A stretch of 63,937 nt of DNA, the filler included, from Caldilineae bacterium (lineage in GTDB: Bacteria; Chloroflexota; Anaerolineae; DTLA01), in the NCBI GenBank assembly GCA_037446815.1. It is 13 parts of 13 records of this genome, joined end to end, with 100 filler letters (N's around TTAATTAATTAA, not from the genome) between each part and the next. Parts side by side here need not be neighbours in the genome. Positions count along the whole stretch, not along the records: positions 37,104 to 41,962 come from JBBIHX010000200.1; 12 more parts are not named here. The stretch is one strand, 5' to 3'. The position numbers and the translations under genes are program-made. Under the pieces are notes generated by a model that saw only the letters and a program-made list of their open reading frames with translations, ran no database searches and was not told the DNA's origin. This document shows positions 2,457-60,779 of the stretch, in pieces. How positions within the stretch are numbered: the stretch's first letter is position 1; each line of letters begins with the position of its first letter.

Positions 2457-4246
2457 AGGCGATGTCCTCCTTGTCGCTGGCGATCCCTCTCGGCGAGCCC
2501 TGCCACGCCGCGCTCGGCCAGCGGGCGGATCTGCTGCTCGTAGAGGACGGCGTATCGCCCGCCCAGCGCCAGCAACTCCCCATGCGTCCCCCGCTCCACG
2601 ATTCGCCCCCGCTCCACCACCAGAATCTGGTGGGCCCGCATGACGGTGCTGAGGCGCTGGGCAATGACAAACGTCGTGCGCCCGACCATCAGGTGCGCCA
2701 GCGCCTCCTGAATCAGCCGCTCGGTCTCGGTGTCCACGCTGGATGTGGAGTCGTCCAGCAGCAAGATGCGCGGGTCCATCAGCAGGGCGCGGGCGATGGC
2801 CACCCGTTGCCGCTGGCCGCCCGACAGGGTGATGCCCCGCTCTCCCACCAGGGTATCGTACCCATTGGGGAACTGCATGATGAACTCGTGGGCGTGGGCG
2901 GCCTTCGCCGCGCCGATAATCTCATCCTCCGTGGCATCCTCGCGCCCATAGGCGATGTTCTCGCGGATGCTGGCCGAGAACAAGAACGTGTCCTGCAGCA
3001 CGATGCCAATTTGCCGCCGAAGCGAGCGCAGCGTAACGTCGCGGATGTCGTACCCGTCCACGAGAATTTGCCCGCGCGTAACGTCGTAGAAGCGCGGAAT
3101 GAGGTGGATAATGGTGCTCTTGCCCGAGCCGGTCCCTCCGACCAGCGCCGTAATCTGCCCGGGCTCCGCCACGAACGAGACGCCCTCCAGCGTCGGCTCG
3201 TCGCGGTACGCGAACCCCACATCGCGAAACTCCACCCGCCCGGCGAGCGGGGGAAGGTCAACGGCGTGCGGCTTCTCCCGCACGGGCGAGGGCGTGTCCA
3301 GAATCTCAAAAATGCGGCGCCCCGACGCGACGGCATCGGCCGCCATGTCCACCAGCCACCCCATACGCTGGACGGGCGCGGCGAGCATCCCCAGGTAACT
3401 GTTGAACGCCACCAGCGTGCCCACGGTCAGTTGGCCAGCGTTGACCAGGTTGCCGCCGTACCACAGGATAATCGCGGTGCTCACGCTGATAATGAACGTC
3501 ATCATGGGGAAGTTGAAACTCCATTCCCGCACCGTGGCGAGCCTGCGCCGCATCAACTCCACATTGGCGTCGCGGAACCGCTGAATCTCGTAGGGTTCGC
3601 GTGCAAAGGCCTGCACGACCTGGATGCCCGAGAGATTCTCCTGCAGAATCGTGGTCATCGCGGCGTGCTGCTCCTGAACCCGCTGGAACAAGGGGCCGAT
3701 GCGCCGCCCAAAGCGCACCGTTACAAACGCCAGGACGGGAATCGGGGCCAGGGCCGCCGCGGCCAGCCCGGCATGAATGCCGAACAGGATCACCAGCGCC
3801 GCCACCAACAGCAAGGCGATGTTCACGAACTCGGCCACCCCCGTGCCTGCCAGCGCCTCCACAGACGACACGTCCGACGTGCACCGCGACATCAACTCCC
3901 CCGTGTGGGTATGGTCGTGAAACGCGAAGGACAGGTTCTGGATATGATCGTACAGGCGGTTGCGCAGGTCGTAGGCCACGCGGTGCGCGAGCCAGGCGCT
4001 CAGGTACCGCTGGCCAAACGAGAACACAGCGCGCACCAAGCCCAGCCCCAGCAGTCCCCCGGCCAACACCATCAGCGTGCTGGGCGCGCCCTGGGCCAGC
4101 CCGAGGTCCACCGCCTGCTTGACGAACCACGGGACAACCAGGCCCAGCGCCGTTACTCCCAGCAGGCAGAGGTAGCCCAGCGCCACACGCGGCGCGTAAG
4201 GGCGAAGATAGGCCAGCAATCGCCACAGGGTCCGCAGGGATGACAC
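2453..4246 (-). CDS. ABC exporter, fused permease/ATP-binding (MsbA/MdlA-like)
   Basis: N-terminal transmembrane domain; GGTGSGKST, LSGGQRQR, LLLDDSTSSVD. Confidence 0.95.
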   Translation of the reverse strand: MSSLRTLWRLLAYLRPYAPRVALGYLCLLGVTALGLVVPWFVKQAVDLGLAQGAPSTLMVLAGGLLGLGLVRAVFSFGQRYLSAWLAHRVAYDLRNRLYDHIQNLSFAFHDHTHTGELMSRCTSDVSSVEALAGTGVAEFVNIALLLVAALVILFGIHAGLAAAALAPIPVLAFVTVRFGRRIGPLFQRVQEQHAAMTTILQENLSGIQVVQAFAREPYEIQRFRDANVELMRRRLATVREWSFNFPMMTFIISVSTAIILWYGGNLVNAGQLTVGTLVAFNSYLGMLAAPVQRMGWLVDMAADAVASGRRIFEILDTPSPVREKPHAVDLPPLAGRVEFRDVGFAYRDEPTLEGVSFVAEPGQITALVGGTGSGKSTIIHLIPRFYDVTRGQILVDGYDIRDVTLRSLRRQIGIVLQDTFLFSASIRENIAYGREDATEDEIIGAAKAAHAHEFIMQFPNGYDTLVGERGITLSGGQRQRVAIARALLMDPRILLLDDSTSSVDTETERLIQEALAHLMVGRTTFVIAQRLSTVMRAHQILVVERGRIVERGTHGELLALGGRYAVLYEQQIRPLAERGVAGLAERDRQRQGGHRL

Positions 4247-4254
4247 CGCGCACC

Positions 4255-4857
4255 TCAGTCCGAATCACGCGCAGCGGGCGGGGAGACCAGGCCGCGCTCG
4301 GCCAGATGCCGCAGGCCCAGCCCGATGCCCGCCACCGAGGACATGGAACGGATGACACCGTCTGCGATCAACGCCCACAGGTCGCCCGGCGACACGTGAT
4401 GCACGCGCAGGTCCTCCGTCGCGTCCAGGTGCTGGGCCGTAGTCTGGCGCGCGCCCACGGCCAGGTAGAAGTGCACGCGATTCGCCGAGCGGTTGGGGTC
4501 GGGGTGCAGCGACGCCAGATGCGTCCAGTCATCGGCCGAATATCCCGTCTCCTCGGCCAGTTCGCGCTGGGCCGCGTGGAGCAGCGACGCATCCTCAGCG
4601 TCCACGTACCCCGCCGGCAGGTCCCACAGCGCCCGCCCGCACCCGTGCTTGTACTGCTCCACCAGAATGACCCTGCCCTCGGCAGACAGCGGGAACACCA
4701 TGACCACGTCTCGCCCCTCCGCCAGCAGGTACTCCTCAATGATGTGGCCATTGGGCAACAGGCAGCGTTGCGCCGTGATCGTGAGCCACGGCGGGCGCTC
4801 CAGCACGATTTGGGAGTTCAACACTGTCCAGGATTTCACGGTTTGGACGACCTCCAT
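4255..4857 (-). CDS. NUDIX hydrolase (ADP-ribose pyrophosphatase-like)
   Basis: Nudix box PAGYVD...AAQRELAEETGY. Confidence 0.9.
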   Translation of the reverse strand: MEVVQTVKSWTVLNSQIVLERPPWLTITAQRCLLPNGHIIEEYLLAEGRDVVMVFPLSAEGRVILVEQYKHGCGRALWDLPAGYVDAEDASLLHAAQRELAEETGYSADDWTHLASLHPDPNRSANRVHFYLAVGARQTTAQHLDATEDLRVHHVSPGDLWALIADGVIRSMSSVAGIGLGLRHLAERGLVSPPAARDSD

Positions 4858-4923
4858 CTGATGCGGATGAGGACAAGGCGGGCCGGGGATTGCGCCCCCG
4901 CCCTTCCGCGCCTGGGCGCAAGG

Positions 4924-5232
4924 CTATGGCGCCGGGCTGGCGGGCAGAGTGAATGGGGCCGTCTTGGAATCGGCTTCCTCCTCGCCTTTCAGGAGCCGCG
5001 CGGTTACCACCCCGTCGGCCCCGGGCGAGGGAGTCCCGCGCAGGTGCAGCGTTACGTCCATGCGCGGCTCGTTCAATTCCACAACGAGCATCTGCGCCCA
5101 GAAGTCGCCCGCCGCCGAGCGCAGCGTCAGTTCCACGTTGACCGGGCCTTGGCCGTCCCAAAGAAACGAGACCATGACCCGCTTGCCGTCCGGCCACGGC
5201 TGGGCCAGCAACTCCCGAAACGCAGGCGACAC
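4924..5232 (-). CDS. Hypothetical protein
   Basis: GTG start with GGGAGG RBS, downstream of a sigma70-like promoter; no recognised motif. Confidence 0.55.
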   Translation of the reverse strand: MSPAFRELLAQPWPDGKRVMVSFLWDGQGPVNVELTLRSAAGDFWAQMLVVELNEPRMDVTLHLRGTPSPGADGVVTARLLKGEEEADSKTAPFTLPASPAP

Positions 5233-5264
5233 CCCGACCTCCCGATTGGTGAATGTGTATGGGG

Positions 5265-5294
5265 ATTATACGCCGCAAGCATGCCGTCGGGCAA
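5265..5294 (-). promoter_or_regulatory. Sigma70-like promoter TTGCCC-18-TATAAT
   Basis: Read on the minus strand; the -35 box begins 16 bp from the MITE end at 5311. Confidence 0.65.
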
Positions 5295-5310
5295 ACCGCC
5301 CGCCCACCGG

Positions 5311-5365
5311 GAGTCGGTTTCATCTTGTGTTGGTGAAACGCATGGACACTCTCCTCGTGTGTCGT
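5311..5365. mobile_element. 150-bp MITE, partial (contig end)
   Basis: GAGTCGGTTTCATCTTGTGTTGGTGAA matches the terminus of the full copy at 37415. Confidence 0.85.
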
Positions 5366-5465
5366 NNNNNNNNNNNNNNNNNNNNNNNNNNNNNNNNNNN
5401 NNNNNNNNNTTAATTAATTAANNNNNNNNNNNNNNNNNNNNNNNNNNNNNNNNNNNNNNNNNNNN
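5366..5465. other. Artificial contig linker (N/TTAATTAATTAA/N); others at 10806, 16136, 21418, 26637, 31826, 37004, 41963, 46689, 51359, 55993, 60609
   Basis: Identical 100-bp spacers with stops in all six frames; complete contigs decrease steadily in length. Confidence 0.98.
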
Positions 5466-5519
5466 CAGGGCCGCCTCGCACCCCGCATGTCCCGCACCCA
5501 CTACGATGACGTCGTACAT
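5466..5519 (-). CDS. mnmG: tRNA uridine modification enzyme MnmG/GidA, N-terminal fragment (contig end)
   Basis: MYDVIVVGAGHAGCEAAL is the characteristic GidA N-terminus. Confidence 0.85.
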
Positions 5520-5745
5520 CGCATACCCTTCACGCGCTACACAGGCCGCAACGGAACCTGCGGCCGTCCGTAGTATAGACATCTTCCGCCGCGGGGCAAA
5601 CTCCCCGCGCGTCCTTGCGAGCGAGGCGACCTTGTAGGATTGCATCCACGAATAGCACGAATCTGCACGAATAGGCGCAAAATTCCGAGGCGTGAGCGCC
5701 GAGGAATGATAGGGCAGCAACCGCGATTGGACGCGAAAGGGTTAC

Positions 5746-5774
5746 GTGCGACCCACCTCGGAGGTGCGTCGCAC
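5746..5774. repeat. GTGCGACGCAC...GTGCGTCGCAC palindrome family; also 21750-21778, 31781-31810, 32128-32159, 41840-41868, 51601-51629
   Basis: Near-identical ~29-bp hairpins in six intergenic regions. Confidence 0.85.
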
Positions 5775-5863
5775 GTTGTCCTCATCCGCCCTTGCGAGCG
5801 AAGCAAATCTATTGAAGGCGGAGGCATCCCCGCCGCACCTGTACGGGCGACCAGCCGGTCGCC

Positions 5864-6013
5864 GACACGGTTCCAGAGTCTGTTGGTGGCTGTCATTGCG
5901 AGGGCGCGGAGCGCCCGAAGCAATCCCCGGGGCGTGCGATTGCTTCGCTTCGCTCGCAATGACACGCGAGGAGAGTGTGTCTGCGTTTCACCAACACAGT
6001 TTGGAACCGACTC
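5864..6013. mobile_element. 150-bp MITE copy A, 8-bp TSD CGGTCGCC
   Basis: TIRs GACACGGTTCCA...TGGAACCGACTC; direct repeat at 5856-5863 and 6014-6021. Confidence 0.92.
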
Positions 6014-6028
6014 CGGTCGCCTGTACAC

Positions 6029-6057
6029 TTGATTCCCCGCGCAACATGCCGTACAAT
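6029..6057 (+). promoter_or_regulatory. Sigma70-like promoter TTGATT-17-TACAAT
   Basis: Upstream of the amidase gene; -35 box is 15 bp from the MITE end. Confidence 0.7.
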
Positions 6058-6106
6058 AGGCGCGTGCCCCATCCGTGTCCAGAAAATCAGCACAGGAGGC
6101 AGCGCG

Positions 6107-7810
6107 ATGGCAAAGGAAACCCAACCCGAAACGGCATACGACCTGCAGTCGGTGAAACTCCCCTACCTGACCGGTTTCCCCCTGCGCCTGATGGCCGCGC
6201 TTCTGGAGGGTCCCCTGCGCTCCCTGCTCATGCCGACCCTGCTCCAGAGCGCGGGCCTGACCGAGTTCCGCAAGCGGCGCTTTGACGACCCGCCGACGCT
6301 CCTGCCCATCCACCACGCCGCGACGCCGGCCCGTTCGGGCGAGCGCGTGCCCGAATCTCAGTGGCCCGCGCCGCCCGCCGAGCCTGGGCCCGGCTTCCGC
6401 TTCGCCACGGTCCACGACTACGCCCGCGCCTACCGCGAGGGCCGCGCCGACCCAGAAACCGTCGCCCGCCGCGTCCTGGATGCCATCCGTGCGGGCGACG
6501 CCGCCGACCCGCCCCTGCGCGCCATCATCGCCGTGGACGAGAAGGACGTGTTGCGCCAGGCTCGCGAGTCGGCCGAGCGCATCCGCAATGGCACGGCGCG
6601 CAGCGTCTTTGAGGGCGTGCCCGTCGCCGTGAAGGACGAGATGGACCTGGTCCCGTATCCAACGACCGTGGGCACGTCATTCCTGGGAACGGCGCCGGCG
6701 CGGGAGGACTGCACGGCGGCGGCGCGCATGAGGGCGGCGGGCGCGCTCCTTATCGGCAAGGCCAACATGCACGAGATCGGCATCGGCGTAACCGGCCTCA
6801 ACCCTCACCACGGCACGCCGCGCAACCCGTACAACCCAGGGCATTACACCGGCGGGAGTTCCAGCGGGCCGGGAGCGGCGGTGGCGGCGGGGTTGTGCCC
6901 CGTGGCCATCGGCGCCGATGGCGGCGGCTCCATCCGCATCCCGTCGTCCTTCTGCGGCCTGGTGGGCATCAAATCCACCTTCGGGCGCGTCAGCGAGTTC
7001 GGCGCCGCGCCGCTGTGCTGGAGCGTGGCCCACATCGGCCCGCTGGCGGCCACGGCCACCGACGCGGCGCTGGCCTGGGCGGTCATCGCCGGCCCCGACG
7101 CCCGCGACCCCAACTCGCTGCACCAGCCCGCGCCGTCATTGGAGGGGTGGGACAAGACCGACCTGCGCGGCCTGACGCTGGGCGTCTTCTGGCCGTGGTT
7201 TCGCCACGCCCAAGCCGAGGTCGTCGCCGCGTGCGAGGCGCTGCTGGAGCAGTTCGTGCGGATGGGCGCCCAGGTGCGCGAGGTCGTCATCCCGGACCTG
7301 GAGGCGGAGCGCGTGGCCCACACCATCACCATCGCCGGCGAGATGACCCAGGCGCTGGCCCACACCTACGCCGCCCATCACCGCGAGCATGGGCTGGACG
7401 TGCGCATCAACCTGGCGTTAGCGCGGCAGTTCACCGCCCGCGACTACATCCAGGCCCAGCAGGTGCGCACGCGGCTCATGGCGCACTTCGCCCGCGCCCT
7501 GGCCGAGGCCGATGTCATCGTTACGCCGGCCACGGCCATCCCGGCGCCGCCGATTCCCCCTGCCGCCCTTGCCGGGGGCGAGTCGGACCTGACCACGCTC
7601 ATGGAGATAATGCGATTCGCGCCGCCTGCCAACATGACCGGCCTGCCCGCCATCTCGTTCCCGGCCGGGTACACCCAGGCGGGCCTGCCCGTCGGGTTCC
7701 AGGCCATCGGCCGCCCGTGGGACGAGGCCACGCTCTTGCGGCTGGCCCTGGCCGCGGAGCGGGTGGTGGAGCGCCGCAAGCCGCAGGTGCACTTTGACCT
7801 GCTGGGCTAG
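6107..7810 (+). CDS. Amidase signature family protein (fatty-acid amide hydrolase-like)
   Basis: GVPVAVKD, GGSSSG and GADGGGSIRIP catalytic motifs; AGGAGG RBS. Confidence 0.92.
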   Translation: MAKETQPETAYDLQSVKLPYLTGFPLRLMAALLEGPLRSLLMPTLLQSAGLTEFRKRRFDDPPTLLPIHHAATPARSGERVPESQWPAPPAEPGPGFRFATVHDYARAYREGRADPETVARRVLDAIRAGDAADPPLRAIIAVDEKDVLRQARESAERIRNGTARSVFEGVPVAVKDEMDLVPYPTTVGTSFLGTAPAREDCTAAARMRAAGALLIGKANMHEIGIGVTGLNPHHGTPRNPYNPGHYTGGSSSGPGAAVAAGLCPVAIGADGGGSIRIPSSFCGLVGIKSTFGRVSEFGAAPLCWSVAHIGPLAATATDAALAWAVIAGPDARDPNSLHQPAPSLEGWDKTDLRGLTLGVFWPWFRHAQAEVVAACEALLEQFVRMGAQVREVVIPDLEAERVAHTITIAGEMTQALAHTYAAHHREHGLDVRINLALARQFTARDYIQAQQVRTRLMAHFARALAEADVIVTPATAIPAPPIPPAALAGGESDLTTLMEIMRFAPPANMTGLPAISFPAGYTQAGLPVGFQAIGRPWDEATLLRLALAAERVVERRKPQVHFDLLG

Positions 7811-7829
7811 GTGCGCGAGGTCCTGAACG

Positions 7830-9458
7830 ATGACGCGCCCGGAGATGCCAATGGCTGCACACCCGAAGACCTTCCCATCCCGCCGCTCGCCGGTGCTGGC
7901 CACGCGGGGCATGGTGGCCACCAGCCACCCCCTGGCCGCGCTGGAGGGCCTGCGCGTGCTCATGGCCGGGGGCAACGCCGCCGACGCCGCCGTTACCGTC
8001 GCTGCCATGCTAGGCGTCGTGGAGCCGATGTCCACCGGCGTGGGCGGCGACTGTTTCGCGCTGGTGTACTGGAACGCGCGACCCGGCGGGGTCTTCGCCC
8101 TGAACGGCAGCGGGCGGTCGCCTGCCGCATTCACCCTGGACGAAGCCCGGCGCCTGGGATTGCGCTCCATCCCCGCCGACAGCGCCCTGGCCGTAACCGT
8201 GCCCGGGGCCGTGCGCGGCTGGGAGGCGCTCCTTGCGCGCTTCGGCACCATGACCCTGGCCGAATGCCTGGCCCCCGCCATCCGCGCCGCCGAGCAGGGG
8301 TTCGCCGTAACGCCCGTCATCGCCCGCGACTGGCGCAACGCCGCGCGCAAACTGGCCCGCAACGCCGAGGCGGCCCGCGTGTACCTGCCCGCGCCGCGCG
8401 CCGGCGAGATTCACCGCCAGCCCGATTTGGCCCGCACGCTCCGCGCCATCGCCGAGGGCGGCGCCGACGCCTTCTACCGCGGCCCCACCGCCCGCTCCAT
8501 CGCCGCCTGCGTCCAGGCGCGTGGCGGCTACATGACCGCGGAGGACCTGGCCGCCCACACGGTGGACTGGGGCGAGCCGATTCGCGCCACCTATCGCGGC
8601 GTGGAGGTGCTGGAACACCCGCCCAACGGCCAGGGCCTGGCGGCGCTGGTGGCGCTGAACATCCTGGAGGGCTACGGCATCGGCGACATGGGCTACTGGG
8701 ACGCAGCCCGCTGGCACTGCCTGATAGAGGCAACGCGCCTGGGCCTGGCCGAGGCACTGGCCCACGTTGCCGACCCTGCCTTCGCCGACGTGCCGGTAGC
8801 GCGCCTCTTGTCGCGAGAACATGCCGACGCCCTGCGCGCCCGCATCCGCCCCGACGCCGCGCTGGATTTGTCCGCCCCGACCGTCCCGCCTTCCCGCGAC
8901 ACGGTTTACATCAGCGTCGTGGACGGCGCGGGCAACGCCGTGTCGTTCATCAACAGCCTGTTCCATCCTTTCGGGGCGGGCATCGTGGTGCCGGGAACGG
9001 GCATCTGCCTGCACTGTCGCGGCGCGGCGTTTCGCCTGGACGAGGCGCACCCGAACGCGCTGGCGGGCGGCAAGCGCCCATATCACACCATTATCCCCGC
9101 GCTGGCGCTGCGCGACGGGCGGCTGTGGCTTTGCTTCGGCGTCATGGGCGCCTTCATGCAGCCGCAGGGCCACGTGCAGGCGCTGGTGAACATGGTGGAT
9201 TTCGGGCTGGACCCGCAGGCCGCGCTGGACGCCCCGCGCTTCCGCGTGGATGAGCAGGGGAGCCGCCGCGTGGCCGTGGAGACGACCGCGCCGCTCAGCC
9301 TGCGCAAGGCGCTGGCCGCGCTGGGGCATGACGTGCGCCCCGAGTCGCCCTGGGATGGGGCGTTCGGCGGCGGGCAGGTCATCGCCGTGCACCCCGAGAC
9401 CGGCGCGCTGTGGGGCGGGTCGGACCCGCGCAAGGACGGCTGCGCCGTGGGATTCTGA
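7830..9458 (+). CDS. ggt: Gamma-glutamyltransferase family protein
   Basis: GGNAADAA, EPMSTGVGGD, catalytic DTVYISVVD, QPQGH, GGSDPRKDG. Confidence 0.93.
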   Translation: MTRPEMPMAAHPKTFPSRRSPVLATRGMVATSHPLAALEGLRVLMAGGNAADAAVTVAAMLGVVEPMSTGVGGDCFALVYWNARPGGVFALNGSGRSPAAFTLDEARRLGLRSIPADSALAVTVPGAVRGWEALLARFGTMTLAECLAPAIRAAEQGFAVTPVIARDWRNAARKLARNAEAARVYLPAPRAGEIHRQPDLARTLRAIAEGGADAFYRGPTARSIAACVQARGGYMTAEDLAAHTVDWGEPIRATYRGVEVLEHPPNGQGLAALVALNILEGYGIGDMGYWDAARWHCLIEATRLGLAEALAHVADPAFADVPVARLLSREHADALRARIRPDAALDLSAPTVPPSRDTVYISVVDGAGNAVSFINSLFHPFGAGIVVPGTGICLHCRGAAFRLDEAHPNALAGGKRPYHTIIPALALRDGRLWLCFGVMGAFMQPQGHVQALVNMVDFGLDPQAALDAPRFRVDEQGSRRVAVETTAPLSLRKALAALGHDVRPESPWDGAFGGGQVIAVHPETGALWGGSDPRKDGCAVGF

Positions 9459-9467
9459 GGCTGGGGT

Positions 9468-9534
9468 TCACCGCAGGGGCACGGAGAGCAGGGATCAGCA
9501 TCTCCTCTGCGTCCTCCGATGCTCTACGGTGAAA
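9468..9534. repeat. Imperfect inverted repeat TTCACCGCAG...CTACGGTGAA; related sequence at ~63670-63765
   Basis: Self-complementary intergenic segment. Confidence 0.55.
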
Positions 9535-10805: not shown

Positions 10806-10905
10806 NNNNNNNNNNNNNNNNNNNNNNNNNNNNNNNNNNNNNNNNNNNNTTAATTAATTAANNNNNNNNNNNNNNNNNNNNNNNNNNNNNNNNNNNNNNN
10901 NNNNN

Positions 10906-10939
10906 CATGCGGTTCACCAACACAGTTTGGAACCGAATC
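10906..10939. mobile_element. 150-bp MITE, partial end (contig start)
   Basis: TTCACCAACACAGTTTGGAACCGAATC matches the end of copy E. Confidence 0.8.
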
Positions 10940-10942
10940 CCA

Positions 10943-10990
10943 GGGGCTAAGGGCTAAAGGCTAGCGGCTAAAGGCTATGGGCTAGAGGCT
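10943..10990. repeat. Heptamer tandem repeat (NNGGCTA) x7
   Basis: Directly visible 7-bp periodicity. Confidence 0.8.
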
Positions 10991-11021
10991 ACCGACCGAG
11001 TAATGTTGCGAGGGAGAAGAC

Positions 11022-12481: not shown

Positions 12482-12631
12482 GATGCGGTTCCATCTTGTG
12501 TTGGTGAACCGTGGGCGCACTCTCCTCGTGTGTCATTGCGAGCGAAGCGAAGCAATCCCACGCCCCGGAGATTGCTTCGGGCACTGCGTGCCCTCGCAAT
12601 GACGGGTACCAACAGACTTTGGAACCGGATC
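12482..12631. mobile_element. 150-bp MITE copy B, TSD AAGGGTGC/AAGGATGC
   Basis: Full TIRs; 7/8 direct repeat at 12474-12481 and 12632-12639. Confidence 0.9.
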
Positions 12632-16116: not shown

Positions 16117-16239
16117 CCGACGCCCCATCGCCCGCNNNNNNNNNNNNNNNNNNNNNNNNNNNNNNNNNNNNNNNNNNNNTTAATTAATTAANNNNNNNNN
16201 NNNNNNNNNNNNNNNNNNNNNNNNNNNNNNNNNNNCTAC

Positions 16240-16335
16240 TGTCATTCTGAGCGGCGAAGCCGCGAAGAATCTCGTCCCTCACCCCAGCCCTCTCCCGAAG
16301 GGCGAGGGCGTATCGCCTTCGGCTCAGCATGACAG
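16240..16335. repeat. Cluster of GTCA-type REP-like hairpins
   Basis: TGTCATTCTGAGCGGCGAAGCCGCGAAGAATCTC and an inverted CTCAGCATGACA copy. Confidence 0.8.
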
Positions 16336-16392
16336 AGCGGAGAGCCGGTGCGCGGGATAGACCAACACAAGATGAAACCGAGTTGAGAGGCG

Positions 16393-16542
16393 GACACGGT
16401 TCCATCTTGTGTTGGTGAACCGTAGGCACACCCTCCTCGTGTGTCATTGCGAGCGAAGCGAAGCAATCCCACGCCCTGGAGATTGCTTCGGGCGCTCCGC
16501 GCCCTCGCAATGACAGCCACCAACAGACTTTGGAACCGAGTT
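16393..16542. mobile_element. 150-bp MITE copy C, TSD GAGAGGCG; solo MITE end at 16361-16384
   Basis: Direct repeat at 16385-16392 and 16543-16550. Confidence 0.92.
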
Positions 16543-16557
16543 GAGAGGCGGGGCATG

Positions 16558-16587
16558 TGGACAGATTGCCGCCCCCCGTGCTATACT
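16558..16587 (+). promoter_or_regulatory. Sigma70-like promoter TGGACA-18-TATACT with extended -10 TG
   Basis: -35 box is 15 bp from the MITE end; upstream of the acetyltransferase gene. Confidence 0.65.
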
Positions 16588-16614: not shown

Positions 16615-17724
16615 ATGGACATTGTCCAGGCCACGACAAAGGCCCAGGTTCGGGAGTTCGCCCTGCTTCCCTATGCCCACTACCGCGGCGATGCCGGCTG
16701 GATTCCGCCGCTGCGCTCGGAGCAACTGCGCCTGTTCGCGCCCGACACCAACCCGCTCCTGCGCCATTGCGACTACGCGCTGTTCCTGCTCCGCGACGGC
16801 GGGCGCACCGTCGGGCGGGTGGCGGCGTTTGTGGATCATCTGGCGGTGGACTACTGGCAGACGCCCATCGGGTTCTTCGGCTCCTACGAGTGCGTGGACG
16901 ACAGCGCGGCGTCGCGCTTGCTGCTGGACACGGCGCGGGACTACCTGCGGGCGCGCGGGATGACCATCATGCGCGGCCCCATCAGTTTCTCGTCGCAGGA
17001 GTGGGGGTTCGTGGTGCAGGGCTACGAGCATCCGCCCACCATCATGGCCCCGTACAACCCGCCGTATTACAACGCCCACGCCGAGGCCTATGGCCTGCGT
17101 AAGGCCAAAGACCTGCTGGTGTACGAGGCCGACGTGTCCAAGGGGTACGTGATTCCCGAGCGCTACCTGCGCATGATGGACGCCATCGCCGAGCGGCACG
17201 GCGTGTCGCTGCGGCCGCTGAACATGCGCCGCTACCGCGAGGACGCGCAGATCATCATGGATTTGTCCAACCTGTCCATCGCCAACAACTGGGGCTACTA
17301 TCCTGTAACAGAGGCGGAGGCCGAGCAGATGGCCCGCGACCTGAAGCAGATCGTCCACCCCGAGGCGGTGCTCATCGCCGAGGCGGGGGGCCGCGCCATC
17401 GGCTTCACCATCACCCTGCCCGACATCAACGTTCTGCTGCGCGGGCTGAACGGGCGGCTGTTCCCCTTCGGGTTCGTGAAACTCCTGTGGGGGCTGCCGC
17501 GCTTGCGCCGGTACCGGTTCTTCGCGCTGGGCGTGCATCCCGACTACCACGGGCTTGGGATTGACTCGCTGCTGTACGCGCGCACATGGCAGGCGCTGGC
17601 CCGCCGCAACGTGCGCGTGGAGATTGACTACGTGCTGGAAGACAATGTGCCCATGAACAACGCCCTGCACCGCCTGGGCGTGAAGCACATCAAGACCTAT
17701 CGGGTGTACGAAATGCCGACATAG
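16615..17724 (+). CDS. GNAT-fold N-acetyltransferase (YghO-like)
   Basis: GRVAAF, GFFG.YEC, PYNPPYY, LPDIN, GRLFPFG, LEDNVPM. Confidence 0.85.
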   Translation: MDIVQATTKAQVREFALLPYAHYRGDAGWIPPLRSEQLRLFAPDTNPLLRHCDYALFLLRDGGRTVGRVAAFVDHLAVDYWQTPIGFFGSYECVDDSAASRLLLDTARDYLRARGMTIMRGPISFSSQEWGFVVQGYEHPPTIMAPYNPPYYNAHAEAYGLRKAKDLLVYEADVSKGYVIPERYLRMMDAIAERHGVSLRPLNMRRYREDAQIIMDLSNLSIANNWGYYPVTEAEAEQMARDLKQIVHPEAVLIAEAGGRAIGFTITLPDINVLLRGLNGRLFPFGFVKLLWGLPRLRRYRFFALGVHPDYHGLGIDSLLYARTWQALARRNVRVEIDYVLEDNVPMNNALHRLGVKHIKTYRVYEMPT

Positions 17725-17824
17725 CCATCAGCGATCAGCAGTCAGCAGTCGGCGATCGGCTGTGAGCGGTATAACCGATTTCTTGACGCCTGCTGATTGC
17801 TGGTTGCCGATGCTGACCGCTACC
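17723..17824. repeat. Inverted heptamer repeat array (CAGC(A/G)NT forward, GCTGA reverse)
   Basis: 7-bp periodic units on one strand followed by their complements. Confidence 0.7.
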
Positions 17825-17837
17825 AGTGGAGGACATC

Positions 17838-19166
17838 ATGACCAACAGTCTCATCCGCTCGGTGGGCATCATCACCCTGGACGATGCGGGGACAGTGCTC
17901 ACCGACGCCGACCTCGCCGTGAGCGGCGGGCGCATCGTAGCCGTGGGCCGCGCTCCGGACGATTTCCCCGCCGATGAGGTCGTGGACGGGCGGGGCAAGG
18001 TAGCGGTGCCCGGCTTCTTCAACGCCCACACCCACGCGCCGATGACGCTGGTGCGGGGCTGGGCCGAGGACTTGCCGCTGGATCGCTGGTTCAACGAGCG
18101 CATCTGGGTGGCCGAGTCGGCCCTGGAGGAGGAAGACGTGCGCTGGGGGGCCTATCTGGCCGCTGCCGAGATGATTCGGTCGGGCACCGTTGCCTTCGCC
18201 GACCATTACTTCTGGATGGATCGCGTGGCCGAGGTGGTGGAAGAAAGCGGCCTGAAGGCGACGCTGGCCTGGTGCGTGTTTGGGCTGGGCGCGGAGCAGG
18301 AAATCGGCGGGACGACGCTGGCCCGCACGGTGGAGTTCGTGCGACGGTGGCAGGGCGCGGCGGGCGGCCGCATCCGCACGGTGCTGGGCCCCCATTCGCC
18401 CTATGTCTGCTCGCCCGAGTTCCTGGCCCAAGTGGCCGCTGTGTCGGCAGAACTGGGCGTCGGCTGCCACATCCACGCCGCCGAGTCCCAGGCGCAGGTG
18501 GATGCTTCACGGGCGCGCCACGGCGCCACGCCCATCGGCCATCTAGCGCGGCTGGGCATCCTGGACCGCCCCGCCATCGTGGCCCATGCCATCTACCTGG
18601 GCGAGGGCGACATGGAGATTCTCGCCGAGAAGCGCGCCACCGTGGTGCAGTGTCCCAATTGCCACATGAAACTGGGCATGGGCACGACGCGGGTGCCGGA
18701 CTTGCTGGCGGCGGGGGTGAATGTGGCGCTGGGCACCGATGGCACCGCCAGCAACAACAACCTGGACATGCTGGAGGAGGCGCGGCTGGCGGCGCTGGTG
18801 CAGAAGCACGACCGCCGCGATCCCGAAGTCCTGGCGGGAGACGTGCCTCTGCGCCTGGCGACGCAGGCCGGGGCGCGGGCTATGGGGTTCGCCGATAGCG
18901 GCGTCATCGCGCCGGGCCGCCCCGCCGACATCGCGCTGTGGGATTTCAACCGGCCCCATCTGCGGCCGCGACACAACCGCGTGGCGAACCTGCTCCACGC
19001 GGCGCGCGCCGGCGACGTTACCGATGTCATGGTGGACGGTCGGTGGCTCCTGCGCGGCGGCCAACTCCAGACGTTGGATGAGGAGCGCATCCTGTGGGAG
19101 GCCGAGCGCCGCGCCTTCCGCATGGTGGGCAGCGATTTGAAGCAGGTGCGGGCGTATAGGGTATAG
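17838..19166 (+). CDS. Amidohydrolase, MTA/SAH deaminase-like
   Basis: PGFFNAHTH, GPHSPY, HIHAAE, LGTDG. Confidence 0.9.
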   Translation: MTNSLIRSVGIITLDDAGTVLTDADLAVSGGRIVAVGRAPDDFPADEVVDGRGKVAVPGFFNAHTHAPMTLVRGWAEDLPLDRWFNERIWVAESALEEEDVRWGAYLAAAEMIRSGTVAFADHYFWMDRVAEVVEESGLKATLAWCVFGLGAEQEIGGTTLARTVEFVRRWQGAAGGRIRTVLGPHSPYVCSPEFLAQVAAVSAELGVGCHIHAAESQAQVDASRARHGATPIGHLARLGILDRPAIVAHAIYLGEGDMEILAEKRATVVQCPNCHMKLGMGTTRVPDLLAAGVNVALGTDGTASNNNLDMLEEARLAALVQKHDRRDPEVLAGDVPLRLATQAGARAMGFADSGVIAPGRPADIALWDFNRPHLRPRHNRVANLLHAARAGDVTDVMVDGRWLLRGGQLQTLDEERILWEAERRAFRMVGSDLKQVRAYRV

Positions 19167-19308
19167 CGGTCAGCAATCAGCAATCAGCAATTAGCAATCA
19201 GCAGTCAGCAATCAGCGGTCAGCAGTCAGCGATTGGCTATCGGTTGCTTGCCAATGGCTAGGGCTGATGGCTGATCGCTGACGGCTGATGGCTGTTTGCT
19301 GATGGCTA
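19165..19308. repeat. Inverted heptamer repeat array (CAGCAAT)n ... (GGCTGAT)n
   Basis: About 9 forward and 8 reverse units able to form a long hairpin. Confidence 0.8.
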
Positions 19309-21003: not shown

Positions 21004-21415
21004 GGGGCGGGGCCGCGCGGGGCTGAAGCCGCCGCGGTGAGGGCGTAGGGCAAGTTGGCAACTTGCCCCACGGGGGCGGGGGTATGTGGCCGCGCGGGGC
21101 TAATGGCTAGCGGCTATCGGCTAATGGCCAGCCTGTCACCCTGAGCGAAGCGAAGGGTCTCGGGTTGCGAGATTCTTCGCGGCTTCGCCGCTCAGAATGA
21201 CAGATTGCCGCGGGCGAGGGGCGGGGCCGCGCGGGGCTGAAGCCGCCGCGGTGAGGGCGTAGGGCAAGTTGGCAACTTGCCCCACGGGGGCGGGGGTATG
21301 TGGCCGCGCGGGGCTAATGGCTAGCGGCTATCGGCTAATGGCCAGCCTGTCACCCTGAGCGAAGCGAAGGGTCTCGGGTTGCGAGATTCTTCGCGGCTTC
21401 GCCGCTCAGAATGAC
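21004..21415. repeat. Two 198-bp direct repeats (period 214) of mixed REP-like units
   Basis: 21004-21201 matches 21218-21415; each holds a GTAGGGCAAGTT...AACTTGCCC hairpin, heptamers and two GTCA hairpins. Confidence 0.9.
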
Positions 21416-21517: not shown

Positions 21518-21816
21518 GCGCCCCCAAGGCCCACACCCTCAGCGCGGCGGCTTCAGCCCCGCGCGGCCACGCACCCTCGGCCACCGCGAGAGGGCCGGGG
21601 TGAGGGCCACGCTCCCTCGCCCGCAACTGTCATTCTGAGCGGCGAAGCCGCGAAGAATCTCGCGCTCCTATTCGCGCAATCCGTGCCATCCGTGGATACA
21701 ACCCTGGAGATGCTTCGCCTTCGGCTCAGCATGACAGGAGGGCGACTACGTGCAACGCACCTCCGAGGTGTGTCGCACGTAATCACTCTTGCGTGGATTC
21801 GCGTTCATCCGCGGTT
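21518..21816. repeat. Mixed REP-like cluster
   Basis: CCCTCACCC-type, GTCA-type and GTGCGACGCAC-type units plus ATCCGTG/ATTCGCG repeats. Confidence 0.75.
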
Positions 21817-31925: not shown

Positions 31926-32034
31926 TCCTCGTGTGTCATTGCGAGCGAAGCGAAGCAATCGCACGCCCCGGAGATTGCTTTGGGCGCTCGGCGCCCTCGC
32001 AATGACAGCCACCAATAGACTTTGGGACCGAATG
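31926..32034. mobile_element. 150-bp MITE, partial (contig start)
   Basis: Internal REP pair plus ACCAATAGACTTTGGGACCG end. Confidence 0.85.
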
Positions 32035-37112: not shown

Positions 37113-37406
37113 GAGATTCTTCGGCGCTCCGCGCCTCAGAATGACAGTTGGTGGGGGTAGGTTCGGGGGCTGCGCGCCTTACAGCGGCAGTTGCGTTGTG
37201 CCGTGCTGGGACGGAGGCGATACGCCCTCGCCTCTCGGGAGAGCGCTGAGGTGAGGGGGTGAGATTCTTCGGCGCTTCGCGCCTCAGAGTGACAGCCATG
37301 TTGTGTCATGCTGAGCCGAAGGCGAAGCATCTCGGTCAGCGGGATTCTTCGGCGCTCCGCGCCTCAGAATGACAGTTGGTGGGGGTTGGTTCGGGCGCTC
37401 CGCGCC
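37113..37406. repeat. Cluster of GTCA-type REP-like hairpins with a ~65-bp direct repeat
   Basis: GATTCTTCGGCGCTCCGCGCCTCAGAATGACAGTTGGTGGGGG occurs twice. Confidence 0.8.
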
Positions 37407-37414
37407 CAAAACGT

Positions 37415-37564
37415 GAGTCGGTTTCATCTTGTGTTGGTGAACCGTAGGCGCACTCTCCTCGTGTGTCATTGCGAGCGAAGCGAAGCAATCCCACGCCCCG
37501 GAGATTGCTTCGGGCACTGCGTGCCCTCGCAATGACAGCCACCAACAGACTTTGGAACCGACTC
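37415..37564. mobile_element. 150-bp MITE copy D, TSD CAAAACGT
   Basis: Direct repeat at 37407-37414 and 37565-37572. Confidence 0.93.
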
Positions 37565-37579
37565 CAAAACGTACCAACT

Positions 37580-37621
37580 TTGACAACAAATGTGTTATCC
37601 CCTATAATGTGATATATCACA
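37580..37621 (+). promoter_or_regulatory. Consensus promoter TTGACA-17-TATAAT with overlapping palindrome TGTGATATATCACA
   Basis: -35 at 37580-37585, -10 at 37603-37608, perfect 14-bp palindrome at 37608-37621. Confidence 0.85.
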
Positions 37622-37636
37622 AGCGGGAGGGGAACG

Positions 37637-39088
37637 ATGCTGCAAACGCATGGCATGAGCATGACCAGCGCGCACTACTGCCGTCTGGGGCAGCAGGAGC
37701 GCGAGAAGATCCACGCGGCCAGCCTTGAGATTCTGGAGCGGGTGGGCGTGGACGTGCACGACGAGCGGGCGCGCGCCCTGTTGGTCAAGGGCGGGGCCAA
37801 GGCCGACGGCATCCGCGTGCGGATTCCGGAGCACATGGTCGCGACGGCGCTGGCCGTAGCGCCCAAGCAGATTACGCTGTACAACCGACACGGCAAGGTG
37901 GCTATCCGCGCCCGCGACTACAACACTTACTATGGCGGCGGGTCGGACTGCCTCAACATCCTGGATCACCGCACCGGGCAGCGCCGAAAGCCGACGCTGA
38001 GCGACGTGCGCGACGCCGCCGTGGTGCAGGATGCGCTGCCGGAGATAGACTTCGTCATGTCCATGTTCCTGCCCGAAGACGTGGATCAGCGCATCTACGA
38101 CCGCTACCAGATGGAGGTGATGCTCAACAACACCACCAAGCCCATCGTGTTCGTTACGCCGGACTTTGAGGGGTGTGTGGCGGCGGTGGAGATGTGCGAA
38201 GCGGTAGCAGGTGGGGCCGAAGCCTTCCAGCGTCGTCCCTTCGCCGTGTGCTACATCAACGTTACGTCGGGGCTCATCGCCAACGCCGAGGCGCTGCAGA
38301 AATGCATGTACTTCGCGGAGAAGGGCCTGCCGCAGTTGTACATTCCGCTGAACGCTGGCGGGGTCAACTCGCCCGTAACTACGGCGGGCTGCACGGCCAC
38401 GATGAACGCGGGCACGCTCTTGGGCATCGTGCTGGCGCAGTTGGTGCGCGAGGGGTCGCCGGTGGCCGTGCCGGGGTGGAACGGCGGGCCGTACAACCTG
38501 CAGACGATGGTGGGCAACTACGTGTTGGCCGAGGAGCAGGGCGTGCCAACCGAGATGGGCAAGTTCTACGGGCTGCCGGTCTTCGGGCTGGGCGGCTCCA
38601 CCGACTCCAAGGTGCTGGATCAGCAGTGCGCCGCCGAGGCGACCATCAGCCTTTTCACGGCTCTCCTACACGGGGCCAATATCGTCCACGACGTGGGGTT
38701 TATGGACGCGGGGCTGCAAGGGTCGCTGCAACTGATGGCGATTTGCAACGACCTCATCGGCTTCCTGCGGGCGGCCACGGCGGGCGTGCCCGTGAACGAC
38801 GAGACGCTGGCGCTGGACGTGGTGGACGAACTGGGGCCGACGGGCAACTATCTGGAGCACAAGCACACGCTGCGCAACTTCAAGAAGGCCTACTACTCGC
38901 GCCTGGCCGACAAGCGTGTGTACTCCCAGTGGGTGGAGATGGGCGCGACGACCATGGAGCAGCGCGCCGCCCAGCAGGTGGACAAGATTCTGGCCGAGCA
39001 CAGGCCCGAGCCCTTGCCGGAGGACGTGCAGCGCGCCATCCGCCGCATCGTGGAGCGCGAGCAGGAGCGAATCAACGCGAGGGGCTAA
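37637..39088 (+). CDS. Trimethylamine methyltransferase (MttB) superfamily protein, non-pyrrolysine
   Basis: IHAASLEILERVGV, SPVT.AG, GGSTDSK..DQQ, GANIVHDVG, LALDVV..GP.GNYL..HT; no internal TAG. Confidence 0.9.
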   Translation: MLQTHGMSMTSAHYCRLGQQEREKIHAASLEILERVGVDVHDERARALLVKGGAKADGIRVRIPEHMVATALAVAPKQITLYNRHGKVAIRARDYNTYYGGGSDCLNILDHRTGQRRKPTLSDVRDAAVVQDALPEIDFVMSMFLPEDVDQRIYDRYQMEVMLNNTTKPIVFVTPDFEGCVAAVEMCEAVAGGAEAFQRRPFAVCYINVTSGLIANAEALQKCMYFAEKGLPQLYIPLNAGGVNSPVTTAGCTATMNAGTLLGIVLAQLVREGSPVAVPGWNGGPYNLQTMVGNYVLAEEQGVPTEMGKFYGLPVFGLGGSTDSKVLDQQCAAEATISLFTALLHGANIVHDVGFMDAGLQGSLQLMAICNDLIGFLRAATAGVPVNDETLALDVVDELGPTGNYLEHKHTLRNFKKAYYSRLADKRVYSQWVEMGATTMEQRAAQQVDKILAEHRPEPLPEDVQRAIRRIVEREQERINARG

Positions 39089-41731: not shown

Positions 41732-42062
41732 GTCGGCTCAGACCCTCCGCGGCCGGGGCCTGGCGGGCTGGAATAGCCCAGGGCCTCGGCCGTTTTGTTT
41801 TTTCCCCGCGTGTGGCCGCGATCCTCGCGTATGGTGAACGTGCGACGCACCTCCGAGGTGCGTCGCACGTTGGCCCCCCGACTGTCCTGCTGAGCCGAAG
41901 GAGAAGCATCTCCAGGGTTGTGTCCACGGATGGCACGGATTAGGCGGATCGGGTGAGATGAGNNNNNNNNNNNNNNNNNNNNNNNNNNNNNNNNNNNNNN
42001 NNNNNNTTAATTAATTAANNNNNNNNNNNNNNNNNNNNNNNNNNNNNNNNNNNNNNNNNNNN

Positions 42063-43476: not shown

Positions 43477-43577
43477 GGGCCTTGCCCGGCGAGGCTTGCA
43501 GCGGAGCCGCTGGTGACGTGTGCATCACGCGTGAGATTGCCTCGGGCCACGGCGCCCTCGCAATGACGTTCCCCATC

Positions 43578-43678
43578 TGTCATTGCGAGCGAAGCGAATC
43601 AATCCCAAGCCCCGGAGACTGCTTCGGGCGCCTCGCGCTCTCGCTATGGCAGCCACCAACAGACTCTGGAACCGCACA
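43578..43678. mobile_element. Degenerate partial MITE
   Basis: Diverged REP pair plus ACCAACAGACTCTGGAACCG end. Confidence 0.7.
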
Positions 43679-51469: not shown

Positions 51470-52025
51470 GACACGGTTCCAAAGTCTGTTGGTAACCGCC
51501 ATTGCGAGGGCGCGGGCAATGCCCTCACCCCAGCCCTCTCCCAGCGGGAGAGGGAGCCACGCCCGGCCTTCGGCCTCCTGAGGTTGGGCGAGATTACAAG
51601 GTGCGACGCACCTCCGAGGTCCGTCGCACGTGCCCGATTCGCGTGGATTCGCGTTAGGGAGCAGCACTCGGGGTTCATGTGGTGTCGGTCTGCCCGCGCG
51701 GTCTTTCTGCTGCGTCTATCACGGTGAGCCGATAGCGCAGTATCTCGGACAGCGAGATGCTTCGCCGCTCCGTGGCTCAGGATGACAGCCCCGTTGTGTC
51801 ATGCTGAGCCAAAGGCGAAGCATCTCGGTCAGCGAGATTCTTCGCGGCTTCGCCGCTCAGAATGACAGTTCCCAGGGATTGAATTAACATGCGCAGCACT
51901 CTCATAGATGCCCAGGACGCCGCCTCCCCACTCTGTCATGCTGAGCCAAAGGCGAAGCATCTCGCGGCGCGTATCCGCGGATAGCACGGATTGGACGGAT
52001 GACGGAGGCGAGATTCTTCGCGGCT
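51470..52025. repeat. Dense repeat cluster with a MITE end at 51470 and several REP-like families
   Basis: GACACGGTTCCAAAGTCTGTTGGT plus CCCTCACCC, GTGCGACGCAC and GTCA hairpins. Confidence 0.8.
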
Positions 52026-55841: not shown

Positions 55842-55991
55842 CATTCGGTTCCAAGGTCTGTTCCTGGTTGTCATTGCGAGGGTGCGGAGCGCCCGAAGCA
55901 ATCTCTGGGGCGTGGGATTGCTTCGCTTCGCTCGCAATGACACACGAGGAGAGTGTCCATGCGGTTCACCAACACAGTTTGGAACCGAATC
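55842..55991. mobile_element. 150-bp MITE copy E (right flank lost)
   Basis: Full-length element with both TIRs; TSD cannot be checked. Confidence 0.9.
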
Positions 55992-60489: not shown

Positions 60490-60708
60490 ATCGCCGTACG
60501 GCGCCTCGCTCCGGAGGGTGGTGGTAACCGGCGTGGCGGGCGGCCCCGCTGTCATTAGGAGGGTACGAGAGGATACAGCGAGGAACAGGGAGGCAGGGCG
60601 ACTCGGTTNNNNNNNNNNNNNNNNNNNNNNNNNNNNNNNNNNNNNNNNNNNNTTAATTAATTAANNNNNNNNNNNNNNNNNNNNNNNNNNNNNNNNNNNN
60701 NNNNNNNN

Positions 60709-60732
60709 ACCAACACAAGATGGAACCGAATC
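60709..60732. mobile_element. MITE end (contig start)
   Basis: ACCAACACAAGATGGAACCGAATC. Confidence 0.8.
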
Positions 60733-60749
60733 GCGCGGATGACACCCCC

Positions 60750-60779
60750 TTGACGCAGCGCGGTTCTCCATGCTACAAT
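60750..60779 (+). promoter_or_regulatory. Sigma70-like promoter TTGACG-18-TACAAT with extended TG
   Basis: -35 box is 17 bp from the MITE end. Confidence 0.7.

Follow-up and report, generated by a model that had tools for sequence, protein, structure and literature searches.

A 150-bp miniature inverted-repeat transposable element of Anaerolineae that very probably homes to promoters and leaves them intact

What brings the end of a short repeat to a fixed distance from a promoter, and why does the same spacing recur beside other copies of that repeat? The question is raised by position 37415 onward of a 63,937-base window (the whole stretch of DNA analysed here) from a Caldilineae bacterium, in which a 150-bp repeat, designated copy D, terminates at position 37564 and the -35 hexamer of a predicted promoter starts after a gap of 15 nt. 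The window is made up of 14 contigs of ~2–5 kb, chained by thirteen 100-nt spacers (N runs around TTAATTAATTAA), and the repeat is a miniature inverted-repeat transposable element (MITE). An earlier, sequence-only reading of the same DNA had taken it for a candidate promoter-targeting mini-transposon. We consider it very probable that the MITE homes to promoters and that the promoters are left intact. Its landing is non-random: the element comes to rest upstream of the -35 hexamer with 15 nt, or in some cases 16 or 17, between its terminus and the hexamer's first T; a gap of 15 nt means that the -35 begins at the 16th nt. A separate promoter scan gave the site beside copy D a score of 12/12 and found it to be the sole promoter-like site in its 4.9-kb contig.

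The end motif of the repeat, GANNCGGTTYCA, occurs 12 times in the window against an expectation of 0.37, and none of 100 shuffles reached 12. A profile made from four copies and run on the window with nhmmer returned five full-length copies (A, B, C, D and F) and five partial ones. A full copy measures 150 bp, is without coding capacity and is bounded by arms that form imperfect terminal inverted repeats of ~25 nt; in copy D, 20 of 25 positions are complementary, and the single-strand fold of the element runs end to end (-42.9 kcal/mol, z -6.45). The terminal base is C in 12 of the 15 window termini examined, and arm positions 3–4 are variable, even between both ends of one copy. Direct repeats of 8 bp flank the element, perfect around copies A, C and D and with one mismatch around B. 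Another 20 element pairs of 101–152 bp, from other genomes and metagenome contigs, have 8-bp repeats at 0 or 1 mismatch, in a tally that lists only pairs with at most one mismatch and in which one of the 20 entries is a tandem pair taken whole. In the metagenome runs, 15–18 contigs of X1 and 15 each of X2 and X3 diverge precisely at 37415 and at 37561/37565, the boundaries of copy D. Summed contig depth in run X1 is ~1,700–9,500 on the MITE versus 10.7 on the flanking gene, a sum over all organisms in the sample and not a copy number. The full copies and their immediate surroundings are as follows.

37415 to 37564, plus strand: MITE copy D, full, 150 bp, with ends GAGTCGGTTTCA... and ...TGGAACCGACTC (nhmmer E 7.9e-54)
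37407 to 37414, no strand: left target duplication of copy D, CAAAACGT, 8 bp
37565 to 37572, no strand: right target duplication of copy D, 8 bp
5864 to 6013, minus strand: MITE copy A, full, with target duplication CGGTCGCC at 5856–5863 and 6014–6021
12482 to 12631, plus strand: MITE copy B, full, with target duplication AAGGGTGC/AAGGATGC and a promoter on neither side
16393 to 16542, plus strand: MITE copy C, full, with target duplication GAGAGGCG at 16385–16392 and 16543–16550
16236 to 16384, minus strand: second element with the same arm type and other hairpin cargo, abutting the copy C octamer and cut by the contig start
55842 to 55991, minus strand: MITE copy F, full, against a contig edge (E 2.5e-45), one flank unreadable and the other without a promoter

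Beside copy B, an open reading frame (ORF) from a plain ORF list ends 31 nt to the left and an opposite-strand ORF abuts the right end. Such plain lists include spurious frames in this GC-rich DNA and were used loosely, for copy B only.

Five element ends in the window face a promoter-like site. Three of them belong to full copies and two to copies cut at a contig edge, which are listed here with the sites.

37580 to 37608, plus strand: predicted promoter TTGACA-17-TATAAT, its -35 starting 15 nt past the copy D end at 37564
6029 to 6057, plus strand: predicted promoter TTGATT-17-TACAAT, 15 nt from the copy A end at 6013
16558 to 16587, plus strand: predicted promoter TGGACA-18-TATACT, 15 nt from the copy C end at 16542
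5265 to 5294, minus strand: predicted promoter TTGCCC-18-TATAAT, 16 nt from the end at 5311
60750 to 60779, plus strand: predicted promoter TTGACG-18-TACAAT, 17 nt from the end at 60732
5311 to 5365, plus strand: cut copy, left 55 nt (E 4.4e-11)
60709 to 60732, minus strand: cut copy, last 24 nt, at a contig edge

Downstream of each of the five sites, and on the same strand, lie a ribosome-binding site (RBS) and an ORF that starts 72–144 nt beyond the element end. The gene behind copy D is MttB-family (37637–39088, matching MTTB PF06253), the one behind copy A starts at 6107 and matches Amidase PF01425, and those behind the copy C promoter and the 5311 promoter start at 16615 and at 5232 (minus strand), respectively. 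Judged by the RBS and ORF downstream and by conservation of the D promoter, the five outward sites look like real sigma70-type promoters. The gaps given by the sequence-only reading (15 nt for A, C and D, 16 nt on the minus strand for 5311 and 17 nt for 60732) were all correct on re-reading, and its statement that either terminus can face the promoter, with promoter and gene remaining intact, holds as well.

How far does this spacing depart from chance? We called a promoter where the -35 matched at least 3 of 6 positions and the -10 at least 4 of 6, with A at position 2 and T at position 6 of the -10, a total of at least 9 of 12 and a spacer of 16–18 nt. Only 30 of the 124,432 position-strands of the window qualify. 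Measured from the 13 readable MITE ends, five of these 30 sites have offsets of 15–17 (binomial P ~2.5e-13, of which the order of magnitude is safe and the exact value unreliable, the calling rule having been fixed after the data were seen). A wider set of ends came from the window, five genomes reached via loci, a 400-genome sample of the class and a metagenome scan (28 loci). The end pattern is present in 16 of the 400 genomes and the reversed-pattern control in none. After ends with fewer than 62 readable flank bases and 3 ends abutting another copy were dropped and identical flanks collapsed, 110 distinct family ends remained.

Sorted by the offset of the -35, the outward hits at these 110 ends number 12 at 15, 2 at 14, 2 at 16, 1 at 17, 1 at 13 and 8 at 5, with 0–2 hits at each remaining offset from 0 to 31 and 36 outward hits altogether. 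The inward strand of the same 110 flanks, used as a control, gives 2 hits in total. A negative control of 46 non-family ends (chance matches in unrelated phyla, from at least 68 loci of a loose-pattern scan) gives 1 outward hit and 1 inward hit. Positional enrichment of the kind that the sequence-only reading had asked for shows in this set of ends, as a sharp peak at offset 15 in comparison with these controls. Hits at offsets 13–17 stem from 15 distinct ends: five in the window and others in G001, G006, G050, G078, locus L054 and two metagenome contigs. Independently of our promoter rule, the consensus of contig tails past the terminus in runs X1–X3 has TTG 15–16 nt out, with an agreement of 0.46–0.48.

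If the MITE came to the promoter, rather than the promoter with the MITE, related genomes should preserve the site without it. Orthologues of the D-locus gene were found in four relatives (G001, G006, G055 and G098) at 97–98% protein identity, and the MITE is absent in all four. They have a single octamer (CCAAACGT or GCAAACGT in three of them, more diverged in G098), followed by ACCAACT and TTGACA-17-TATAAT. The promoter therefore came first, and the 8-bp repeat around copy D was produced by the insertion. Further upstream, the DNA is unrelated between genomes while the promoter is conserved, so that the region upstream of the D promoter turns over quickly between sister genomes. These empty sites come from the genomes of relatives; the metagenome contigs contain no empty-site joint for copy D. 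Two observations were made in passing at this locus. Upstream of the D-locus orthologue in G098 (L227), there is a long run of short imperfect repeats where the window has hairpins and the MITE. A query with the MttB-family gene returns 7–8 matches in each of the four relatives, which, besides the orthologue, are 28–41% identical, several of them lying on one contig.

The other promoters add to this picture. The copy C promoter is kept in 4 of 4 relatives, all without the MITE. The 5311 promoter is empty in G001 and G098, and in G055 and G006 it carries a 101-bp MITE at 15 nt, which has the same arm type, another hairpin cargo and the opposite end toward the promoter. Likewise, the 60732 promoter is empty in G098, G001 and G055, and G006 carries the 101-bp MITE there, again at 15 nt. 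The orthologous locus of copy A was also tried as an empty site and set aside, because the upstream DNA is too diverged; 2 of 4 genomes match, with degenerate MITE remnants at other distances.

Elements also stack in front of one promoter. Copy C and the inverted element of different cargo abut one octamer, GAGAGGCG, and metagenome contig L136 has two tandem copies with one octamer present three times. In run X1 there are joints of two copies with 3+8+3 letters between them, and what precedes the left terminus in the consensus is the end of another element followed by 8 nt. Stacking is expected if the landing pad is set from the promoter side, since it then survives each insertion. Head-to-tail pairs may instead originate from the circle-junction chemistry of the superfamily, for which inverted repeats 6–10 bp apart have been described (PMC3942029). 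The inverted pair at copy C does not fit a circle-junction origin.

Could insertion be random, with selection purging the copies that break genes or promoters? All copies are intergenic, as such a filter would leave them, and MITEs of compact genomes are generally purged from coding DNA. Selection of this kind would, however, allow any upstream distance, yet 12 hits fall at exactly 15 nt and 0–2 at the offsets beyond 17. It would also have to produce two MITE types at the same promoters, at 15–17 nt, in different lineages, and stacked copies that share one octamer. We therefore regard random insertion as highly improbable.

The interior of the element raises a second doubt, namely whether it is a transposon at all. 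Positions 50–124 form a hairpin repeat of frequent occurrence in this lineage, with or without the arms. A query with the MITE gave 84 matches in the relative G001, mostly of the core only and some as short tandem runs. These armless matches would suit hairpin elements of the repetitive extragenic palindrome (REP) or bacterial interspersed mosaic element (BIME) type in place of a MITE moved by a DDE transposase. The full element, however, is bounded by inverted arms, is flanked by a clean duplication of 8 bp and has empty sites in relatives; the arms are the same as those at the ends of a transposase-bearing insertion sequence (IS) described below; and they enclose a different hairpin in the 101-bp type, which makes the hairpin a cargo. 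A REP/BIME-type origin is accordingly extremely improbable.

In copy D the hairpin core lies at 37440–37523, the same core occurs in copies A–F, and related hairpins lie just upstream of D (37115–37406). A second palindromic repeat (family D9), at 5732–5781, 21736–21785, 41826–41875 and 51587–51636, resembles the cargo of the 101-bp MITE in G006 and G055. Different hairpin repeats therefore ride between the same arm type.

Which enzyme could move such an element? The first 26 nt of the MITE are identical at 24 of 26 positions to the ends of a 1,349-bp IS of G004, a metagenome-assembled genome (MAG) of the Anaerolineae class from another order, and this IS also makes 8-bp duplications. The MITE ends match IS copies in G230 and G074 too, the transposases of which are only ~60% identical to P0001, the G004 type. 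The G004 copy of the transposase gene lies in two separate frames. The family comprises at least 1,337 homologues (E <=1e-5); they are typically 427–429 aa long, lie mostly on contigs of 1.4–2 kb, and fall in clusters named 'hypothetical' or 'transposase-like'. Viral contigs, searched with an alignment of the transposase, yielded no match.

Family members score 26.6–38.6 bits against PF00872 (Transposase_mut), above its cut-off of 21, in agreement with the earlier guess of a Mutator-like parent. All 21 aligned members share invariant D190, D234 and E354, a C255xxH258 motif that follows the second D and, towards the N-terminus, four cysteines. Against the NCBIfam models, all 21 match ISH6 and IS256 weakly (E <=0.01), with best scores of 45.8 and 40.7 bits compared with cut-offs of 240 and 150; P0001 itself scores 45.8 bits for ISH6 and 31.8 bits for IS256. 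The guess of a Chloroflexota host likewise holds, the relatives being Anaerolineae. The transposase with matching ends is not of the TnGBS/ISLre2 or ISKra4 type. The ISLre2 model (NF033529) matches none of the 21 members at E <=0.01 and none of 3 proteins at E <=1, and the ISKra4 model (NF033572) also matches 0 of 21 at E <=0.01. The search for a transposase with these ends, which the sequence-only reading had recommended, succeeded in other Anaerolineae and not in the four closest genomes. On the evidence of the matching ends, we lean towards assigning the MITE to the 428-aa transposase family.

Three other candidates were examined and rejected. The IS256-type genes of G006 and G055 are without these ends, and the one weak match to ISKra4, in G050, is a false positive that stems from an open frame of GC-rich sequence. 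An ISLre2-like gene in G066 (L244, G066:C57) scores 180.9 bits, below the 200-bit cut-off, and has one in-frame TGA; it is flanked by inverted repeats (a 20-nt exact run) ~1.5 kb apart that are unlike the MITE ends.

The family ends show two sharp modes, at 5 and at 15 nt. In G004, the IS and its 139-bp MITEs have an 8-bp duplication with TTG or TTGA as its last letters, in 9 of 10 cases at left-type ends and in 8 of 12 at right-type ends; the duplications there are NNNNNTTG. The right duplication runs into ACA and so completes a -35 that starts 4–5 nt from the element end, as seen at 7 of 23 ends. Copies with a transposase elsewhere lie at 5 nt (L205), 4 nt (L215) and 7 nt (L139). The autonomous relatives thus insert ~10 bp closer than the MITEs and duplicate the TTG of the -35. 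The modes follow the genome and not the end type, suggesting a register that depends on which variant of the enzyme is present. At the G004 loci L099–L120, the transposase-proximal end is nearly always the promoter-facing one.

These G004 duplications give weight to the idea that the target is read directly in the DNA, as TTG or a -35-like word at a fixed distance or as promoter DNA shape, with no contact to RNA polymerase. Words ending in TTG or TTGA recur at most of the ends, a full promoter at 4–5 nt accompanies only the 7 of 23, and ISH6, the nearest named family, prefers the word AANATNTT (PMC3942029). Direct reading is the more natural account of the G004 class. The 15-nt class is harder to explain in this way and speaks more for the whole promoter, and less for a single word, being recognised. 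Its octamers and the 7 nt before the -35 are without consensus, its -35 words vary (TTGACA, TTGATT, TGGACA, TTGCCC, TTGCGC and TTGGAG), and the promoter-less copies in the window are also without TTG at +16. In addition, all 15 ends at offsets 13–17 have a near-consensus -10 at 16–18 nt, a point that is partly circular as our rule demanded a -10. For the targeting as a whole, we hold direct reading to be a serious alternative, though somewhat less probable than its opposite.

Several points weigh against promoter homing and against movement by the 428-aa family. Besides the promoter rule having been set with the data in hand, the family set is a convenience sample obtained via exact end patterns, and a few insertions may be orthologous and not independent. 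For about half of the insertions in the window (B, E, the readable flank of F, 10939, 32034 and 60600), there is no promoter at the expected place; the sequence-only reading had already named B, E, 10939, 32034 and 60600 as ends that do not fit. Among transposase-bearing copies with a readable flank, none lies at 15 nt with a convincing promoter, and those with promoters use 4–7 nt, so that the enzyme setting the 15-nt register is not among the transposases found. Searches of G001, G006, G055 and G098, and of G050 and G078, did not recover the 428-aa family; all six are draft MAGs, in which its absence is not thereby shown. The partner transposase is thus a candidate drawn from other lineages. 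The copies without a promoter, or cut next to a contig edge, are these.

43567 to 43678, plus strand: copy E, degenerate, left arm replaced; no promoter at 15–17 nt and a promoter-like site at 44 nt
31926 to 32034, plus strand: cut copy, right 109 nt (E 7.5e-35), no promoter
10906 to 10939, minus strand: cut copy, terminal 34 nt, no promoter
51470 to 51523, minus strand: cut copy, terminal fragment 11 nt from a contig edge, flank unreadable
60600 to 60608, plus strand: cut copy, first 9 nt; no promoter in the outward flank, read by eye from the alignment row

Either the aim is a strong preference only, or promoters of another kind lie beside the promoter-less copies, or the promoters there have decayed.

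The mismatch of registers also speaks for a different enzyme, in which case the 15-nt MITEs would be moved by an unseen transposase of ISKra4 or ISLre2 type. Their register equals the one published for p-MULT 3 and the ISKra4 group (PMC3942029), the autonomous copies of the 428-aa family keep to 4–7 nt, the family was not recovered from the six genomes named above, and one Anaerolineae genome has the ISLre2-like gene of 180.9 bits, below cut-off. The MITE ends, however, agree with those of the 428-aa family IS in 24 of 26 nt, and the target duplications of both are 8 bp long. The ends of the ISLre2-like element in G066 are unrelated, no ISKra4 scores above cut-off in the five genomes that carry 15-nt MITEs, and the IS256-type genes of G006 and G055 have other ends. 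Movement by an enzyme of this kind seems to us unlikely.

We hypothesize that, in promoter homing by the 428-aa family, a Mutator-superfamily DDE transposase supplied in trans would cut and join the MITE, a step suggested by the matching ends. This transposase would be of the ~428-aa family with an N-terminal four-cysteine zinc ribbon, known from other Anaerolineae. It might find its site by docking on the entire promoter, with bound RNA polymerase holoenzyme as the most probable partner, a mode of targeting proposed for TnGBS (PMC3942029). The 15-nt register would then be one helical turn upstream of the register of the autonomous relatives. The landing pad persists after insertion and leaves the same promoter open to new hits, as the stacked elements and the independent hits in sister lineages show. 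Guidance by RNA polymerase has in our estimate no better than an even chance. The positions of the alpha C-terminal domain at promoters might coincide with both registers.

On a broader scale, the elements could represent a third Mutator-superfamily lineage, nearer to ISH6/IS256, that gained promoter homing with two registers one helical turn apart. This we put forward with reserve, as an idea more doubtful than secure. Within it, the 15-nt register may have spread through Anaerolineae mainly by MITEs stacking before promoters, and the two proposals together are offered as a conjecture that could well prove wrong.

Where did the isolated ends come from? The sequence-only reading had treated them as solo termini, which they are not: 5311, 10939, 32034, 51470, 55991, 60600 and 60732 are the ends of MITE copies severed at contig edges. 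A contig edge lies inside or against the repeat at 5311–5365, 10906–10939, 31926–32034, 51470–51523, 55842–55991, 60600–60608 and 60709–60732, and since the MITE has a high copy number, short-read assembly breaks inside its copies. The MITE copies thus account for assemblies breaking into ~5-kb contigs. A repeat search also reported a 41-copy repeat at ~5 kb spacing, which was rejected as an artefact because its members are the joining spacers.

5366 to 5465, 10806 to 10905, 16136 to 16235 and ten more: spacers joining the contigs

Three further repeats were noted in the window. Family D3 is a 198-nt pair at 21004–21201 and 21218–21415 (both 100% identity, starts 214 nt apart) at a contig edge, and is either a genuine duplication or an assembly artefact. 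Family D7 consists of heptamer-like tandem units (AGCAGTC-type) at 17723–17768 and 19151–19245. A tandem run of GGCTAAAGG type at 10940–11000 adjoins the cut MITE end at 10939.

The locus adds to what is known of promoter-seeking transposons a 150-bp substrate that obeys the rule, a transposase lineage outside both known ones and a sister class that inserts 10 bp closer. Promoters hit by different elements in sister species amount to natural repeat experiments, and the small substrate and its registers make the question of promoter finding testable with simple constructs. Should docking on promoter-bound RNA polymerase underlie both registers, they would form a natural variant pair for how transposases read promoters. 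MITE ends also mark promoters in uncultured Anaerolineae.

How does this compare with systems already described? Insertion 15–17 (13–17) nt upstream of sigmaA promoters, with a peak at 16, is described for TnGBS and ISLre2 (p-MULT 3) and for 13 IS of the ISKra4 group (p-MULT 4), and elements whose inverted repeats are near-perfect insert in both orientations (PMC3942029). All p-MULT elements have 8–9-bp duplications and 18–39-bp inverted repeats with a terminal C, and in their DDE transposases the second D is followed by C/D(2)H and the E is preceded by a long insert (PMC3942029). A signature between domains N1 and N2, including one conserved aspartate, is tied to promoter targeting, and contact with the transcription initiation complex has been proposed for promoter-seeking transposases (Guerillot et al. 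2014, PMC3942029). The same source has IS256 inserting at random and ISH6 preferring its target word, and the ISKra4 group was first named from a Chloroflexi host (PMC3942029).

The behaviour is thus already known for a few full-size bacterial transposons; the literature covered contains no description of a MITE as carrier, of the apparent transposase lineage or of two registers. A literature search over titles and abstract openings named no promoter-aimed bacterial MITE, which is weak evidence of absence. Like TnGBS and ISLre2, the elements described here keep a fixed distance before the -35, leave the promoter intact, belong to the Mutator superfamily, make a duplication within the 8–9-bp range and have inverted repeats with a terminal C (PMC3942029). 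Unlike them, the MITE is 150 bp long and non-coding, it can face the promoter with either end, and the transposase with matching ends is unmatched by the ISLre2 model (0 of 21). The hosts differ too, being Anaerolineae here and Firmicutes, Fusobacterium and Synergistetes for TnGBS/ISLre2 (PMC3942029). The ISKra4 group differs in that its model misses the transposase family (0 of 21), and the text of PMC3942029 never uses the word MITE. With ISH6 and IS256, the transposase-bearing relatives share the 8-bp duplication, a single-gene element of ~1.3–1.4 kb and a DDE transposase with the CxxH layout; unlike ISH6 and IS256, they score far under the cut-offs (ISH6 NF041731: 45.8 versus 240 bits) and insert on or beside promoters. 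The ISH6 target AANATNTT does not recur: the duplications are NNNNNTTG in G004 and have no consensus in the window. As in bacterial MITEs, the element is small and non-coding; it has inverted ends, duplicates its target, occurs in many copies and shares its ends with an autonomous IS, the last in other genomes only; unlike bacterial MITEs in general, it appears to aim its insertion at promoters.

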